Shown: positions 3,301 to 62,548 of the stretch, piece by piece | Position numbering within the stretch: position 1 is the stretch's first letter | Layout of the letters: each line of letters starts with the position of its first letter | Sequence record: NC_010583.1 | Direction: 5' to 3' (one strand) | Length of the DNA: 64,000 nt | Origin: Escherichia phage Eps7 | Translations under genes and position numbers: made by a program | The notes under the pieces: generated by a model | Told to the model about the DNA's origin: nothing | What the model saw: the letters and a program-made list of their open reading frames with translations, nothing else | Databases searched by the model: none

Positions 3301-4155
3301 TTACACCGTAAATGGATATGCAATAGCAGGATGGTGTTCATAGCCACGAACAGTAAAATCATCCTTACTTACCCACGTTAATACATCATCCAAAGTTCTA
3401 ATATTTGGATTGATTTCTAAAGTAGGAGGTGCAAAAGGTTCACGATCGAATTGCTTGTGCTCCATCAGAACATTATACTGATCTTCATAGATATGAAGAT
3501 TAATAATCTTTTGACGAGCAATACCTGGCTTAAGACCTGTAATCTGTGCCATAATAGCTAGAAGTGCATAGCATTGCACCATATTAAATACTTGGCCCAG
3601 CAAGAAATCATTAGACCTCTGGAAAGAGTTTAGGTATAGTGTATCACCTAAAATAGAGAATTGATGGGTATGCATACACGGACGTAGGCATCCTTTACGA
3701 AATTCCCCACGGGTTCCAAAAGTTAAAATTTCTCCACGATCGTCAATCCCTCTTTTCAAATTATGATAGACTTTGGCTAACTGATCAAATACCATACCAT
3801 CAGAATTAGTCCAATGACGTCCTTGAACACCATAGACTCGTCCCATATCATCCTCGCCTTTACGGAATGGATTACCTAGCCAGGCAATATTTTCATTTGC
3901 ATTAGCATTCCATGTATTAACACCAATAGCGCGGAATTGTGCTGCTGAGTCGTACCCACGGAGATATCCGATCATTTCCATTATTGCTTGTTTAGCAAAT
4001 GCTTTACGAGTAGTTACTAGCGGCAGTTCTCCTGCTCCTACGTTAAAGGTAAAGTCTGCATCAATAATGGTTAGGCAACGAACCCCTGTTCTAGGATTCG
4101 TTACCCATACACCCTCTTCAAGAATACGTTTTCCAGTTTCAATATATTGCTTCAT
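3301..4155 (-). CDS. thyA: thymidylate synthase
   Basis: active-site region [10 protein letters not shown] (Cys nucleophile) and overall ThyA-like layout; 284 aa. Confidence 0.95.
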
Positions 4156-9129: not shown

Positions 9130-9429
9130 TTACACCTTCCCCATATCCTTAAAGATATCGTAGAATGCTTTAGACTCCGGTGAGCGAACGTTGTCGATCA
9201 GTTCGATCATAGAGAAAGGAGAGTTTTCGTACTTCTCATAGACTTCCATAAGAAGTGCTAGACCTGAATCACCCTTGATGTCTTTCTGAGCTATATCCCC
9301 ACAGATAATTAAACGACAATCTTGTCCTACACGAGTCAGGAGACAGATCATTGCTTCAACGGAGATATTCTGAGCTTCATCGACAATTACATAGGAGTTG
9401 TTGAATGTTGCCACGCTTTCTTGAACCAT
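9130..9429 (-). CDS. PhoH-like ATPase, C-terminal half only (Walker B onward)
   Basis: VIVDEAQN, LTRVG, GDIAQKD, SGL and VRS motifs; no Walker A upstream; an out-of-frame ATG with AGGAG RBS lies at about 9463. Confidence 0.65.
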   Translation of the reverse strand: MVQESVATFNNSYVIVDEAQNISVEAMICLLTRVGQDCRLIICGDIAQKDIKGDSGLALLMEVYEKYENSPFSMIELIDNVRSPESKAFYDIFKDMGKV

Positions 9430-9536
9430 TGCGGTTCTCTCTTTTTTGACGTGCTTTTCCCATAAATAACACTCCTATAGTGTACTTCGCTAACAGAGGA
9501 TCAACAAAAAGATCTTGTTTATCAACTTACAAATAT

Positions 9537-12284: not shown

Positions 12285-12447
12285 TCTAGAAAACATGCTT
12301 ATGGAGCAGTGGAACTCTGGGTATAATGCTGGGGTGGCTACTTGTATTGCGGGGTTGGATATGCTTATTAAGCAAGAAAAGGTACGTCCAGAAGAAGCAA
12401 TTCTACTCCAAAATATCATCGAAGGATTCAAGCAAGGAATCGTATAA
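12253..12447 (+). CDS. hypothetical protein (64 aa)
   Basis: GGAGGAG RBS 7 nt upstream of ATG 12253; overlaps previous ORF. Confidence 0.4.
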   Translation: MDFLNQNLKNNLENMLMEQWNSGYNAGVATCIAGLDMLIKQEKVRPEEAILLQNIIEGFKQGIV

Positions 12448-13261
12448 TGCGTAGACTAATCGTTGTTAGTGGTGCAGGTTTGAGTGTAGATAGTGGTGTT
12501 CGTGCTTTCCGTACTGATACTGCTAGTGGTAAAGCGTTGTGGGATGATTATGACCTAGAAGAGGTATGTAATATTCATGCCTTTCGTGGTAATTTTACCA
12601 TAAAACTCATATGTTTTACAACAAACGTCGTGAAGAGTTACAAACTGTTGAACCTAACCTAGCTCATTTGCGTATTGGTGAATGGTATAAACGGTATCCA
12701 AATCAAGTGGTAAACCTTACTACCAATGTTGATGATCTAATCGAACGTGCTGGAGTGCCGAGAGAAGATATACTCCATATTCATGGATATCTGAAAGAAA
12801 TTATTGTAGAGCATGCGTTCGACCAGACACGTGATGTTATTGATATTGGGTATAGTTCTATTGATCCAGATGACTTTGATTGGGTTAAACCTAACGTTAT
12901 CTTCTTTGGTGAGGTTGCTCCTGCCTATAAAACAATGTATGAGGTTTTTGATGGTATCACCAGTCATGATATGATCATCATTGTTGGGTGCTCTAACCAA
13001 GTAATTAACTTCTACTGGGAGCTATTTCCTGTTCTGAATCTTACTGCTGCAAAACTTATGGTAGTTAACTATTACGATAGTGCAGTAGCTATGGAACCAG
13101 GCTATCAGGGCATGACTCGTAGTGAAATGTATCAGTTAGAAGAACGTGGTATTCCTTACTGGAGTAAAGGTGCTGTGGATGCCTTTAGTGATCCCGATTT
13201 TATTGCTCGTGTGGAAGCTCATCTAGAAGGTAAACCCTATGTTCAACAAAAGCATGTGTGA
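12447..13261 (+). CDS. Sir2-family NAD-dependent deacetylase / ADP-ribosyltransferase-like protein, frameshifted
   Basis: VVSGAGLSVDSGVRAFR (GAGxS..SG..FR), TTNVDDLIERAG, HG, KPNVIFFGE, IIVGCS motifs; frame break at T4 (12594-12597). Confidence 0.8.
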
Positions 13262-36640: not shown

Positions 36641-36718
36641 TTTAGTAAGGAGTTGTTTTACTAATTCCTTTATTTTATTAATCTTTTTTTTTTTGAAAGG
36701 GTGCAAAACGAACCTCTT

Positions 36719-36882: not shown

Positions 36883-39833
36883 TTATGGTAGTTCTGTAAT
36901 TGTTGGAGCATTTCCGTTAAGCATTGATTTTACAAGGTTTTTCAGTTCATATAACTCATTGCGTAATACGTTAATTTCCTCCTGTTGATTATCAATCTTT
37001 GCTTTTTGCTCTTTGAATGCGTTAACAAGAAGTGCGACAACACCATTATAGTTAATGCCTTTGATTGCCTCGCCTTTTGGGTCTAGCTGACCATCGTTAT
37101 TCAAAGAATGAACCGCTTCCGGCAAAACCCTTTCAACATCTTGTGCGATCAATCCAGCCTCAATACTATAAACGCTGTTTTCATCTTCAATTAGATTGTT
37201 GCGCTTGTAGTAAGTATAACCAGTTAGATAATCAATTTTGTCGGATGCCGTTTCGATCTCTTTTAGATGTGCTTTTAATCTAATGTCAGACCTGCTAACC
37301 CAATTTGATGCGCTACCATTTCCAGCACTATCAAAAATAAAGTCAGCGCCCTTAACATAAAGATGTGTTTCAGCGCCGCCAGAAGTCCACGGAACAACAT
37401 CCATGCCAGCTATCCAATCTTTCCCCAATAAACAGATTTAAATATGGCAACCGCAGAATCAAATCCAATGTGCTCAACAAGCAATCCAGACGCACGACTA
37501 CGCCAGTCGGCAAATGAACCACCCTCAACTTGACCAGCAATAAGAGCGTTTGGATCACCGCGCCTAACTCCATTTACATACATACCCCTTGCGTTATCAT
37601 CAACATAAGATGATATGACCCTGTAAGTGTTTATTCCTGATGGAGTCCATGCAAATATTCTCGCTGAATCAGCAAACGCGCTTATGTGACCATCACGATC
37701 CCATTTAAGACCTGAATCATGATCCCCAATTGCTATAGAGTAATCACCAAGAGCCGATTGAGCATCCGGACTTAATAACATCAATTGCCTATCAGATCTT
37801 GCTATCCTGTACCATCCACCCCAAGAGCCAGCACTGCAAATGATACCCCATTTATTACCGTTCATTGCGGTTGCAACAATATTTCCATACTCAACATGAC
37901 CGTTTGCATTTTTACCGTGAACATGCAATTCATACATCCACCAACCAGAGGCTTCAGGTGGTTGATATGTAACAAGTTCTCCGCTTGAGTAATAACCGCT
38001 TTCTGCGTATGTTGACATAAACCCAAGAATGTTTGAATTATTAGGAATAATAATTGCTTGACCACCAACAGGAGTATTTAAGTTCTTTCTTGCTCCAACT
38101 TCAGTATTAGATCCAGTGCCGCCAGCATCAATTGAAAGAGGAATCCATCTTCCAGTTTCATCAGTCCAAACACCCCACGCCGCATCAGGTCTAATTGTGA
38201 TTCGATAAGGTGAGTTACTCCCTGGTGCATACATCATAGTTTCTGTTTCTGTTTGCTTTAAACGATCAATGCCAAAGTTTATTTTTGCGCCCTCAACGTT
38301 TTCAGCACCAGTACCGCCAGCACCAATAGAAAGCGCAGATGTGCTGTTATTGTCATTACGCGCAACGCGCCATTCCCCATTGTTAGCGATCCGTAATTCA
38401 TAAGTCCATGCAGGATTACGAAAAGAATTATAAGCGCCAGCATATTGATCTTTTACAGAATTAACAGCCTCAACTTTTAGCGCCTCCCTTGCAAGGTCTT
38501 TGTTTGCAAGATCATTAAGGTTCTGATCCTTCTTTAACGACGCTTGCATAACCTGTTCTGCTGATGCAGCCGCTGTCTCCGCTCTATCTGCTGCACTGGT
38601 GGCATTAGTAGCTTTCTCTCCTGCTATTGTAGCGCTACCAGCGGCCTCCAGGGCCTTGTCTGTTGCTGTCGTTGCAGCAGTAGTGGCGGTATTTTTAAAT
38701 ACCTCTGCTTCGTCTCTGTAGCCTTTGGTTGTGGTCATCGCTTGCGTAGCTGTATTCGCACTACCTGATGCACTTTGCTGAGCTAGCTTAGCAGCGTCTT
38801 CACTAGCTTTTGAGTTAATTTCACTAGTCTTTGTATTAGTTTCTGAGTTTTTTGCTGCTAATGCTGATGTGGAGGCTTGTGCAGCGAATGCTTCTGCTTC
38901 ATCCCTGAATCCTTTGGAGTCAGAAGCAGAGGCAGCGGAATCAGCAGCATTAGTCTCACTAGTTTTTGCTGCTGCTGCATATGCTGCTGCATTAGTCTCA
39001 CTAGTTTTTGCATTAGTCTCACTAGTTTTTGCATTAATCTCACTAGTTTTTGCTGCAGCTGATGATTCTATAGCAGTAGTTTCACTAATTTTTGCTGCAG
39101 CTGATGATTCTGCAGCTTTAGTAGCGGATGCAGCAGATTGAGAAGCAGAAATAGCAGACTGAGAAGCAGAAGCTTCAGAAGCTTCAGCAGAAATAGCAGA
39201 TTCATTCTCAGAATTCTTAGCATTAAGTTCTGAAGTCTTAGCAGCTATCTCGGAGTCTTTTGCAGTAGTAGCGTATTCTCCCGCCTCTGTAGCAGAACCA
39301 GCAGCAGCAATAGCCTGATTGGTAGACTCAGTAGCAGATGTAGCAGCATTTTGCTCAGAAGTAGCAGCAGCAGTCTTAGCAGCCTCAGCGTCCTTCTTAG
39401 CTTGTTCAGCTAATAGACGACTCTGTTCAGCATTTTGTGCAGCAAGTTCAGCAGAATCACGGAATCCTTTGGATTCCTCAGCTGACGTAGCAGAGGCATC
39501 AGCACTATCTTTAGATAAACCAGCTTGTCTCTCCGCTTCAGTAGCAGAAGCAGCAGATTGAGTTGCAGAAGTTTCTGAAGAGTTAGCGTAAATTGCAGCT
39601 AGGTTCTCCGAGTCCTTAGCATTTGTTTCAGATTCTTTTGCTGCAATTTCAGAATCTTTTGCTGCCGCAGCAGAAGCAGCAGAGGCCTCAACAGCCCCTG
39701 TTAGTTCACTAGCAGTAATAGAACTAATAGAAGTACCTAAAACTACCGTATACTTAGGATATTTACTAGCAGTAGTTGTAGTGTCATCTATGTTCAGAAT
39801 CTGCTGTACAATAATTTTAGTTTTAAGTGCCAT
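36883..39833 (-). CDS. ltf: L-shaped tail fibre (pb1-like) with C-terminal intramolecular chaperone domain, frameshifted
   Basis: Ala/Ser/Thr-rich fibrous repeats, then a Gly-rich globular domain, then chaperone motif IEAGLIAQDVERVLPEAV; frame break at C4/G4 (37423-37426). Confidence 0.8.
38947..39115. repeat. 21-bp tandem repeats inside the tail fibre gene (encoding KTSETNA heptads)
   Basis: ATTAGTCTCACTAGTTTTTGC x3 in tandem at 38990-39052 plus further partial copies. Confidence 0.7.
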
Positions 39834-40260: not shown

Positions 40261-42319
40261 TTACCTTATATGGATATACCCACTATTTAGGTCTATCTTC
40301 ATCTTGTAGTATGCTTCAGGGTTTCCTGATAACGCAGCATTTCTATCGTAGATTATATTAACACCTATTTGTGATAAGAAGGCATTTCCTGCCACAATCT
40401 TATCAGCAGTTACAGTTCCATTAACAATCATGTTGCCATGAAGAACCATTGCAGGGTTAATCCATCCAGCCCCGTTCCATTGACGGGTAAATGCTGTTTG
40501 TGGAGCATTACTGTTAAATTGTGTTAGAACATCGTATTTAACCGGAGGTTTTCCAAAGTTATTTTGAAAGAATGCGTTAGCTTGTCCATCATCCCAACCG
40601 CCTAATCCAGGAATACCCATGGAGTACATCCCAGGACCACGCTGTCCATCATGTCCTATAGTACCTTCAGTACCACTCCATTGAACTACATCAGACCAGC
40701 TAGTACCTTCAAGAAGTTTGTTAGTAACTGGATCAAGTGTACCTGTAGTCGCATAGATATTTTGTGTCATATCTGTACGATTAGGTGGAGTTTTTGACCA
40801 ACCAGGAGGTGGATAATCTTGTTCTAACGGTTTGGCCGGTAAAGATGTTGCTAACTTATAAACAAATACTGTTTGCTTACCTTGTAAACCAGTTCCAATA
40901 TCTACGTCACCATTTGGTGTTCCAATTACTACACCACTAGAAATACGCAGAGTAGTACCATCATAACGTATCCATTGTGTAGCATTACCAATGTCTAACT
41001 TAGCTTTGGCAGAGGTATTATCCATACCCATCCAAATACCAGAGTTATTATCTCCCCAAGATTTACCTTGAGTATAAATTGCTGGATTATCTTTACCAGA
41101 TAAGTTAGTCATGATAAAGTTCGCAGCATTAATATCTCTAGTAATTACTTTACCATCGACGTTAACAACACGATTTATAGGGTCGAAAGAAATAGGTGCT
41201 TTTCCTTCTTCATCTAGCAGACCAATGTTAATAGCACCAGTAGCTGCATCAATTAAGAATGTCTGTCTCCAGATTTCTCCATCTTTCATACTACCCTTAA
41301 TAAAGGCATAGTTAACATCAATACCAGTCTCATTGACAAAACTATTATCTAGAGGAGTATCTTCATTCAATATAAATGTTACAGGAGCTGATTCTGTTAT
41401 ATCTTGCTTATTTGGTCCCCAGGCAATTGATGAAACCTTAAAGGTATGTTCAACTTTCCATGGGAATGATATAATCGTTGCAGCTCTAGCAGCACCCACG
41501 TTTATCTTTTGAGCTTTAGCCCATCCGGTTTTAGCGTATTCCTCGGAGTTTATATAAGTAACCAAGAACTCACGAACGTTAGCACCAGCACCACGTTCCC
41601 ATTCCCACTCAATTCTAACATCATATCGTTCTTTACCATCAGCAATTCGTGCAGCTTTAAAAACAATATCGATAGGTGCAGTAGGTGGAACAAAGTTATA
41701 AGCTACAGTTAGAATATTAGGAAACTCGTAGTATCCTGAAGAATCAACTGTAACACCATCAGGCATAGTTACTTGACCAGATATTCTGATCTTATAGTCT
41801 CCGATAGGAACTCCACCAAATTTAATAGTAGAACCTAAAGCCCCAATATAATATTTAGTCCAAGGACTGTCTTCAGTGGCTGTACTTTTTAACTCAATAG
41901 TACAGTAACTTGCTTCACCAGTTGTTTCCACAACAACTATCGGTGCGCCCACCCCAACATCCACAGGTTCTGACTCAGATCTTGCTGCGACAATTATTGG
42001 CTTCTCTTTTGTTTTAAAGTTAGTTTCATTAGAGAGGTTAATACCAATTTTTGCATTTAAAAGTTCTGAGTCAATAATCGAGTCATAAAAAAGCTCCCTG
42101 AACCTGATAGGTAGTTGAGGGAGTTAAATTATTGATCATAACAAAGAAAGTGTCGATTCCAGTGAAATCTCTTCTATCCACTTCTTCGCCAAGTTTAAGC
42201 CAGAATGATCTACCGATAACATCGTAGTCGGTATAGATAGAATGCTGGATATACGCCATCGTATACCCAGTCATAATACTATTTAAGACCATCTTGGCTG
42301 GTGCATTATTCGAAATCAT
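40261..42319 (-). CDS. baseplate/tail-tip protein pb4-like, frameshifted
   Basis: 78-aa and 567-aa ORFs join into ~686 aa if the A6 run (42087-42092) is read as A5. Confidence 0.7.
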
Positions 42320-49680: not shown

Positions 49681-50049
49681 TTACTGAGCTCGAGATCTAG
49701 CATGCGGTTTAATGTTCGGAGTACGACCATTAGGTTTACTATGCTTCTCGGCTCTCTTACGAGCTGCATCTACAGCTTTCGAATCAAATATATTGATGAT
49801 GTGTAGAACAAACTCTTTTTCTATAGGATCAGTAACCCCATAGATATCAAATAAAACACCTAGTGCACTTTTATCTTTTCCTATAAAGATAGGAAAGTCA
49901 CCTGGTATGAAACAGTCAATAAGGCTGTTATAAATATTCATACTAGTAGATACAATAGGTGGAAAATCTTCGAGTTCAACAGGCATTGCCTTAGGATCAG
50001 GTTCAATACCTAGTGAATCACAAAGCATTAAATATTGTTGTTTTGTCAT
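49681..50049 (-). CDS. putative tail assembly chaperone
   Basis: 122-aa ORF directly upstream of the tape measure. Confidence 0.45.
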   Translation of the reverse strand: MTKQQYLMLCDSLGIEPDPKAMPVELEDFPPIVSTSMNIYNSLIDCFIPGDFPIFIGKDKSALGVLFDIYGVTDPIEKEFVLHIINIFDSKAVDAARKRAEKHSKPNGRTPNIKPHARSRAQ

Positions 50050-50110: not shown

Positions 50111-50515
50111 TTACGCTTTTGAGCTACGAAAAGTGTCTAAGTGGAACACTGTCTGGTTGATCCAAGAATCAAACGCAGCAGAGTTCTGCATAAGCATGAT
50201 AGCGTTATCGCGACTAAATGGAACTTCAGTAGTAGGATCAGCTTCAGTTTCGATAAGCATCAGCTTCTCAACATCTCCAATCGTCAAGCCAGTCCAGCCA
50301 GCAATTGCAGTGTCAACGAAAGCTTCAATAAACTTATCATCGTCCTGAACTTGAATCATAGTACCGTTAACCCACTCATCACGCTTAGCGGAAGAGATAA
50401 CACGCTTAGATGCAGCACGAGACATGTAGTTTAGTTGCAGCTTGAAGTTAGGCATACCTGGGTAAGCCAGCTCAATAGTACGAGTTTCAAGGGTAATATC
50501 TTTTAAATTGATCAT
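50111..50515 (-). CDS. putative tail assembly chaperone
   Basis: 134-aa acidic ORF upstream of the tape measure. Confidence 0.45.
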   Translation of the reverse strand: MINLKDITLETRTIELAYPGMPNFKLQLNYMSRAASKRVISSAKRDEWVNGTMIQVQDDDKFIEAFVDTAIAGWTGLTIGDVEKLMLIETEADPTTEVPFSRDNAIMLMQNSAAFDSWINQTVFHLDTFRSSKA

Positions 50516-60860: not shown

Positions 60861-62548
60861 TTACCAAGGTTTTTTATTATAAATATATCCATTTCTACGA
60901 AAAGCCATCTCATCAGGTCTACTAGCCCACGTTTGGGTATAGCTATATGAAGTTGTACTGTGATATGGTACTAGATAGCCAGGTGGCAGAGTAAGAATCT
61001 GATGAAATACACCATCACCAGCTGTATAACTTTGTTGACGTCTACCTTGTACCTGCCAAGCACTACCACCGTAAGTACGTACAGGCATACCAGCAGTATT
61101 AAGATTACCCATAATAACTTCAGTAGTTAATATAACAGTAGAGTGAGCATTTGGTAATCCCAACCAAACTGTAGCCAAAGGTGTGTAGAAGTCACCAGCA
61201 CCAGGGTAGGATGGAGTTATATCATCCCCAACATAAGTACTCGCAACGTTGCCTGGGAATAATCTAAGTGGTACGGTACTAGGACTCCATACAGGGCCAT
61301 GCTCATTACCTATAGAGTTGGTATTAGTATCTACATACCACTGTTTACCAACACCAAATTTATAAAGGCTAATTTGAGAAGCAGCACCCCCATAGTTAAC
61401 AGGAGACCACAAACCCCCATTACTAGAGCCGATAAATTCACATCGTGCAGTATTATCACCAAAAACTCCGGTATACGCGGTATTATTACCAACATACTCC
61501 ATATCAGGGCGATAACCTAAGTTTCCAAAAGCATTCTGGTTAATAAATTTATAGCCTGAGTTGGGTAAGCTAACACCTTTAATAGTAAAGTTAGATGGAG
61601 ATATCAGGATATCTGAACCAGTAAATGGATTACCAGAAATCCCCATACTACCATTAGAATAGCGTAGATTTAGCACATACCAAATAACTTTAGTAGGTGT
61701 AACATTATACCAGTCTTGCACATATACCTTTCTAGCTGACTGAGCAGCCATATTAGAAGTAGAACCTCTACAAACATATATTTTTTCTGGGTATGCAGGA
61801 GATTGGTAAAGAACGTTTACGTTATCTGGTAGTACTACCTTTTTTTACCGGCAAAGCCACGAATATTGGAACTACAAACGTAAAACCAATCATGACCTCT
61901 ACCAGCAGACCCGATAGGCGCTTGCCAGTTAGGCTCCCAATAGTCTGCATTACCACCATCTATAGGAACTGTAGATACACCCGTTGGAAAGCCCATTAAT
62001 CCCCAGGCTCTAGAAATAGCTTCACCAGCAGAAACACCACCAGGTCTAAAGATCTGGAAACCGGAAGATTGTAGCAAAGTACCGCCAGTTCCTTGTCTAG
62101 CAATAGATTCCTCATGACCTAGGCTACCATTATAAATATAGGTACCATGAGCTAAACTATCACCGATTGCAAAGGCAGATGTTATTGCCAATTCAGCACC
62201 AGCACGTGGTTGGTCTTCAAAGAATGTTAAAAACTGGCCAACCTGAGATTGTGTACCATTAAGGAAACCCCTATGAGTACCGTTTATCTCAATAGCAGTT
62301 AATATAACTCTACCAGGATCATTGGATTTAATGTTTATAATATCCCAAGGCATCTGAGTAACAAAATACCCATTACCTGCATCACCTAGAGCAGCCTCGT
62401 AAGTCCCATCAACTAGGACAAATGGCATATCTGAGTGGAAGATACTATTAGTATTTGGAGAGTAGTGCTGATTTATATCACCACCATTAGCAGCGTTTAG
62501 AGATAATACAGTTTTACCATCACTAAATTTTCCTGCGAAAAAACTCAT
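60861..62548 (-). CDS. receptor-binding tail protein (functional analogue of T5 pb5/Oad), frameshifted
   Basis: 237-aa and 296-aa ORFs join (~560 aa) if the T7 run (61840-61846) is read as T8; divergent from an Llp-like lipoprotein gene. Confidence 0.6.

Follow-up and report, generated by a model that had tools for sequence, protein, structure and literature searches.

The tail-tip gene block of phage EPS7 raises the question of why a structural gene appears there in two pieces. Between the genes for the baseplate hub and the collar, on the minus strand of the 64-kb stretch of genome analyzed here (the window), a 78-aa open reading frame (ORF) is followed by a 567-aa ORF in another frame, and the pair might represent two genes, one gene expressed by recoding, one gene broken by a real mutation, or one gene broken only in the deposited sequence. 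The pb4 stretch measures 2059 nt here, compared with 2058 nt for the coding sequence (CDS) of its relatives. The plus strand around the A6 run reads GTCATAAAAAAGCTCC; at the break itself it is GTCAT-AAAAAA-GCTCC, which corresponds to CAG GGA GCT TTT TTA TGA on the coding strand. When one base of the run is dropped, translation gives a single open frame of 685 codons plus stop, which fits the product of about 686 aa that the first-pass annotation had proposed for the two ORFs joined without a stop at a run of A5. The stop-to-stop frames place the opening of the downstream frame already at 42123, and this frame therefore overlaps the 3′ end of the 78-aa ORF across the run. The GTG start of the 567-aa ORF is codon Val119 of pb4 and lies within Fn3-II; in the two-ORF version of pb4, residues 78-118 would not be made and two domains would be cut. 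The features of the locus and the frame breaks found elsewhere in the window are collected in Table 1.

Table 1. Features of the pb4 locus and positions of frame breaks in the EPS7 window (one strand numbered 5′ to 3′; "-" is the minus strand)
Feature	Position	Strand	Remark
pb4 (central straight fiber), whole gene	40261..42319	-	685 codons + stop only after dropping one base at 42087-42092
pb4 5′ fragment (78-aa ORF, ATG start)	42083..42319	-	authentic codons 1-77, then Leu and a frameshift-made TGA
A6 run (T6 on coding strand)	42087..42092	.	the frame breaks here; one base fewer in all relatives examined
pb4 3′ part, +1 frame	40261..42086	-	authentic codons 78-685 + stop
567-aa ORF as deposited, GTG start	40261..41964	-	ACB97591.1 / YP_001837071.1, "straight fibre tail protein", Eps7
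Fn3-I (PF24169), residues 10-97 of repaired protein	42028..42292	-	cut at residue 77/78; coordinates from repaired translation
Baseplate hub protein pb3, 949 aa	42320..45169	-	upstream neighbor, intact; stop abuts pb4 start codon
Collar protein, p132/LtfC-like, 140 aa	39833..40255	-	downstream neighbor, intact; PF23926 LtfC
Lateral (L-shaped) tail-fiber gene, split	36883-39833	-	C4 at 37423-37426
Break in dhfr	4327		compared with BSP22A only
Breaks in nrdA	7195, 8422, 8467		compared with BSP22A only
Break in ligase B	22290		four relatives agree against EPS7
Break in lateral fiber	37423
Break in pb4	42087
Break in tape measure pb2	about 47012		three relatives agree against EPS7
Break in p140-like minor tail protein	51203		four relatives agree against EPS7
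Break in tail terminator	53042		four relatives agree against EPS7
Break in nicking endonuclease	58769		four relatives agree against EPS7
Breaks in receptor-binding protein pb5	60878, 61836-61840		2-3 breaks; two relatives agree against EPS7

To characterize the gene, the repaired translation was used as query, and all four pb4 Pfam domains are recovered from it far above their curated cut-offs, in the order Fn3-I (PF24169, residues 10-97), Fn3-II (PF24170, 103-196), Fn3-III (PF24171, 211-335) and PB4_spike (PF24168, 350-664). Residues 1-685 align gaplessly and end to end with chain A of PDB entry 8hre ("Central straight fiber", 685 aa; 1460 bits), and over the full length with residues 1-688 of T5 pb4 (7zlv, 7zn2, 7zn4 and 7zqb; 1221 bits); the ordered domains and the full-length match to a solved pb4 bear out the earlier description of a pb4-like gene split at the A6 run. 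The residues across the junction, from QGAF onward, are the conserved sequence of the solved 8hre protein. In the comparison with the single pb4 protein of BSP22A, residues 1-77 are 100% identical and the remainder 98.5% identical, and because both parts match one and the same protein, the 78-aa and 567-aa ORFs are not a chance pairing. The position of the gene in the tail-tip block is also the expected one, with the hub pb3 on one side, the collar p132/LtfC on the other and the lateral fiber gene farther downstream. By homology, the gene at 40261-42319 is the ordinary pb4 central straight fiber of EPS7, a T5-like Salmonella/E. coli phage of the genus Epseptimavirus.

The state of the site in related phages was assessed in 100 rows listed among the roughly 400 phage records that matched, in three IMG/VR contigs and in three contigs from Salmonella assemblies, and every relative examined has one base fewer at the run and a single pb4 gene. 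A megablast search with the 2059-nt query matched 412 phage records, and the best 40 of the 412 all span 2058 nt and carry one pb4 or straight-fiber feature each. A 200-nt query centered on the run matched 375 records; among 60 evenly spread rows, 58 fall short of the query part by one base and another, a partial match, by two, and the one exception is BUCT632, a 77%-identical partial match whose pb4 CDS is intact. These 60 rows, too, each give one feature name under the match. The phage collection was searched without EPS7's own records (NC_010583 and CP000917), and their absence from it accounts for the lack of a 100% match with A6 in that collection. In seven relatives pb4 is annotated as a single uninterrupted CDS, and the run was compared in an alignment of all seven: the epseptimaviruses BSP22A, S116, SuperGirl and PSa2 read GCT TTT TAT, the tequintaviruses T5_ev212, OSYSP and BUCT632 read GCT TTC TAT and thus have no run, and GCT TTT T-TA is found only in the EPS7 sequence. 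Exact matches to the sequence context in IMG/VR number three for A5 and zero for A6, and the three contigs from Salmonella assemblies with related phages carry A5 and an intact pb4. JGI metagenome contigs scanned for the A5 or A6 allele matched neither and are hence uninformative. A single uninterrupted frame of about 685-688 codons is therefore present in every relative examined and missing from pb4 in the EPS7 record, and the interruption is attributed to a fault of the record, not of the gene.

The protein collections were searched for both products of the two-ORF version. The exact 78-aa product has no match in public protein collections, and an exact protein look-up places the 567-aa product on one contig only, the EPS7 genome (111,382 bp). 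The cluster of this latter product comprises 358 members; 40 of them were read, and those other than the EPS7 product are either 685 aa long or 665 aa long with a later start called. A functional division of pb4 into two genes was considered and rejected: the break falls within Fn3-I and the 567-aa ORF begins within Fn3-II, so that the split is not modular, and no relative examined is divided in this way. The conserved two-ORF layout that would speak against an interrupted gene, a point raised by the first-pass annotation, was not found, the relatives examined having A5 or TTC and one CDS.

Further frame breaks were sought along the record by comparing the 64 kb with BSP22A and about 41-45 kb with S116, SuperGirl and PSa2; breaks were located by translated searches with BSP22A proteins, and each was confirmed by stop-to-stop frames. 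Relative to the other phages the indels are of a single base, except for one of two bases at 60878, and at those outside the lateral fiber the deposited EPS7 sequence is probably in error. The lengths of the homopolymer runs were compared as well. The 7-base A/T runs in the window (47012, 49614, 58769 and 61840) are one base longer than in relatives in all four cases, as are four of 25 six-base runs (4327, 30528, 42087 and 53042), and such a systematic surplus of one base in the longest runs is characteristic of homopolymer over-calling. Since several indels (22290, 51203, 8422 and 8467) are located outside homopolymers, the error process would not be purely one of homopolymer miscalling.

Other differences from the relatives were observed along the same comparison. 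A T11 run at 36684-36694, where the early and late gene blocks converge, is about T10 in BSP22A and 4-6 bases longer than in the window in PSa2, S116 and SuperGirl; a 39-aa ORF is annotated across it in BSP22A and small "tail fiber" ORFs lie nearby in SuperGirl, and the region is probably non-coding. In the thymidylate synthase gene on the minus strand, compensating one-base indels relative to BSP22A occur 8 nt apart at 3710 and 3718, with the frame restored after about three codons, reflecting either local low-quality sequence or real micro-variation. Compared with BSP22A, the PhoH-like gene at 9130-9470 (minus strand) is short of about 139 internal codons, with matches restricted to residues 1-19 and 159-250, which lie in different frames; the gap stems either from a deletion or from collapse of the assembly. 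The Sir2-like gene at 12447-13258 (plus strand) shows 82% and then 52% identity to BSP22A with a change of frame, among neighbors of more than 95% identity; allele replacement or mosaicism may account for this divergence. Two small minus-strand ORFs ahead of the tape measure gene (49684-50028 and 50114-50515) correspond to the annotation "putative tape measure chaperone" in PSa2; in siphophages, a conserved -1 frameshift (G/GT-like) is usual at this place.

The lateral tail-fiber gene presents a separate case. In EPS7 it consists of an 807-aa ORF (37410-39833) and, six bases on, an ORF of about 173 aa (about 36883-37404) that bears a Peptidase_S74 intramolecular-chaperone domain, compared with C5 and one 983-aa lateral-fiber gene in four close relatives. 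An independent assembly (SRR3182272, Logan / GCA_008843455.1) shows the C4 split as well, and the same independent contig has A5 and an intact 685-aa pb4. The lateral-fiber split may thus be a real variant that parts the chaperone domain from the fiber, which fits the dispensability of the L-shaped fibers in T5 (PMC10038345). The supposition that every indel relative to the four close relatives is an error was dropped because this split recurs in the independent assembly, and, for the same reason, a difference from the four relatives is by itself no proof of error.

The extra A might also be genuine, as a frameshift fixed or in the majority in the sequenced EPS7 stock, with pb4 coming from a subpopulation of wild-type phages or from rare, spontaneous +1 slippage. 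Replication slippage has natural hot spots in homopolymer runs, the nearby lateral-fiber split (37423-37426) is common to the independent assembly and so probably real, and just three pb4 chains are needed per virion, the T5 protein being a trimer present once per tail (PMC10038345). This explanation is nevertheless unlikely: pb4 links the hub pb3 to pb5 (PMC10038345), so that a null allele should end infectivity, unlike the loss of the dispensable lateral fibers, the A6 allele occurs in no other sequence examined, and the dozen or more further breaks that the record shows in indispensable genes cannot all be genuine. A version in which A6 is real and full-length pb4 arises through low-level +1 slippage of tRNA-Phe on U6, aided by the GGGAG 2 nt upstream and the weak UGA-C two codons downstream, is highly improbable; low-level slippage would suffice because the virion needs only three pb4 chains, and, were this reading true, it would represent a newly arisen dependence on recoding in an essential tail gene.

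Programmed recoding, in the form of a +1 ribosomal frameshift on U UUU UUA UGA or of transcriptional slippage on the T6/A6 run, would yield the 78-aa product and full-length pb4 in a set ratio. It is extremely improbable, given that neither the shift site nor the two-frame layout is conserved, the relatives examined having one frame and the tequintaviruses no run. Individual elements of the site are compatible with a ribosomal shift, namely the perfect re-pairing of tRNA-Phe in the +1 frame on U6, as read from the sequence, and the Shine-Dalgarno-like GGGAG located 2 nt before UUU; the latter, however, is no more than the conserved codons for Gly and Ala, UUU is followed by UUA, which is not a stop codon and not evidently a slow one, and at the stop a P-site UUA would be unable to re-pair on UAU. 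In the zero frame the stop codon stands as UGA-C, the same weak context as in prfB. The 78-aa product would end within a domain, and the run of six is short for transcriptional slippage, which generally needs runs of roughly 8-9 bases to be efficient. A programmed -1 frameshift on T TTT TTA was rejected: the heptamer stands in the right register for it, but a TAA closes the -1 frame after nine codons, and joining the two ORFs needs +1.

A homopolymer-length error of sequencing or assembly in the deposited EPS7 genome is, on the sequence comparisons, very probably the origin of the extra A in pb4. The true T5 of the coding strand (GCT TTT TAT, encoding Ala-Phe-Tyr) would have been recorded as T6, and the additional base would shift the frame after codon 77 into an immediate TGA, while the real phage would make pb4 in one piece, of 685 aa. 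To judge by its T5 homolog, the three N-terminal Fn3 domains of this protein would continue the pb3 fiber, and its trimeric β-helix spike would carry pb5. The break shows the hallmarks of a homopolymer error, being an indel unique to one record and situated in a mononucleotide run, and further unique frame-breaking indels lie in indispensable genes of the same record (pb2, pb5, p140-like, tail terminator, ligase B, dhfr and nrdA). Sequence error is the best explanation because many like single-base frame breaks occur in the EPS7 window, and these cannot all be real because a viable phage could not carry them all. The literature deals with EPS7 as a functional phage with BtuB as its receptor (10.1101/866236), a status with which truly broken tape-measure, receptor-binding, tail-tube-associated and pb4 genes are incompatible. 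We infer that an error, rather than a real mutation, is the source of the extra base, and the most plausible reading of the pb4 split is as one among at least a dozen sequence errors in the EPS7 record. A literature search for comments on frameshifts in the EPS7 genome found nothing specific.

The biological weight of this result is small, as pb4 is well characterized and its split most likely reflects an error in a single genome record. Its practical value lies in curation: the public 567-aa entry of EPS7 (ACB97591.1 / YP_001837071.1 / UniProt B2I4I6) is without the first 118 residues of the protein, and EPS7 is the namesake of the genus Epseptimavirus and of the species Epseptimavirus EPS7. 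Because several more genes look frame-broken, among them those for the tape measure, receptor-binding protein, minor tail protein, tail terminator, ligase B, dhfr and nrdA, comparative studies should rely on the EPS7 record only with care.

In comparison with known systems, the repaired EPS7 pb4 closely resembles its homologs. T5 pb4, like the EPS7 protein, is composed of three Fn3-like domains and a β-helix spike (7zlv, 7zn2, 7zn4, 7zqb; Linares et al. 2023, PMC10038345), and the T5 gene order pb3-pb4-p132/LtfC-lateral fiber is the same as in EPS7. In the case of T5, the three N-terminal FNIII domains of pb4 continue the two FNIII domains of pb3, the contact between the two proteins is made by the pb4 N terminus and the first FNIII, and the β-helix spike carries the receptor-binding protein pb5 (PMC10038345). 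By analogy with the T5 cryo-EM structures (PMC10038345), we infer that EPS7 pb4 would be a trimeric fiber joining pb3 to pb5 in the virion. At the codon in question, T5-type phages have TTC without a homopolymer, whereas in the EPS7 record the frame is broken after codon 77. Chain A of 8hre has the same 685-aa length as the repaired EPS7 pb4 and, apart from the frameshift in the DNA, differs by scattered substitutions only. The pb4 genes of the closest epseptimaviruses, BSP22A (ARM69814.1), S116 (AXC40572.1), SuperGirl (QXV84574.1) and PSa2 (UIR90719.1), are 99.4-100% identical to that of EPS7 at the DNA level bar the one-base gap, and they share with EPS7 identical flanking genes as well as the same start and stop positions; in these four the coding-strand run is T5 and there is one CDS of 2058 nt, in contrast to T6, 2059 nt and two ORFs in EPS7. 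The error itself also has parallels in other records. Homopolymer-length errors that interrupt deposited CDSs are exemplified by the M. smegmatis ICDS study (PMC1852416) and by the homopolymer indels of pyrosequencing (PMC3115854); the EPS7 pb4 break resembles such errors as a one-base run indel, found in this record alone, that breaks a conserved gene and stands amid many such breaks in one record.
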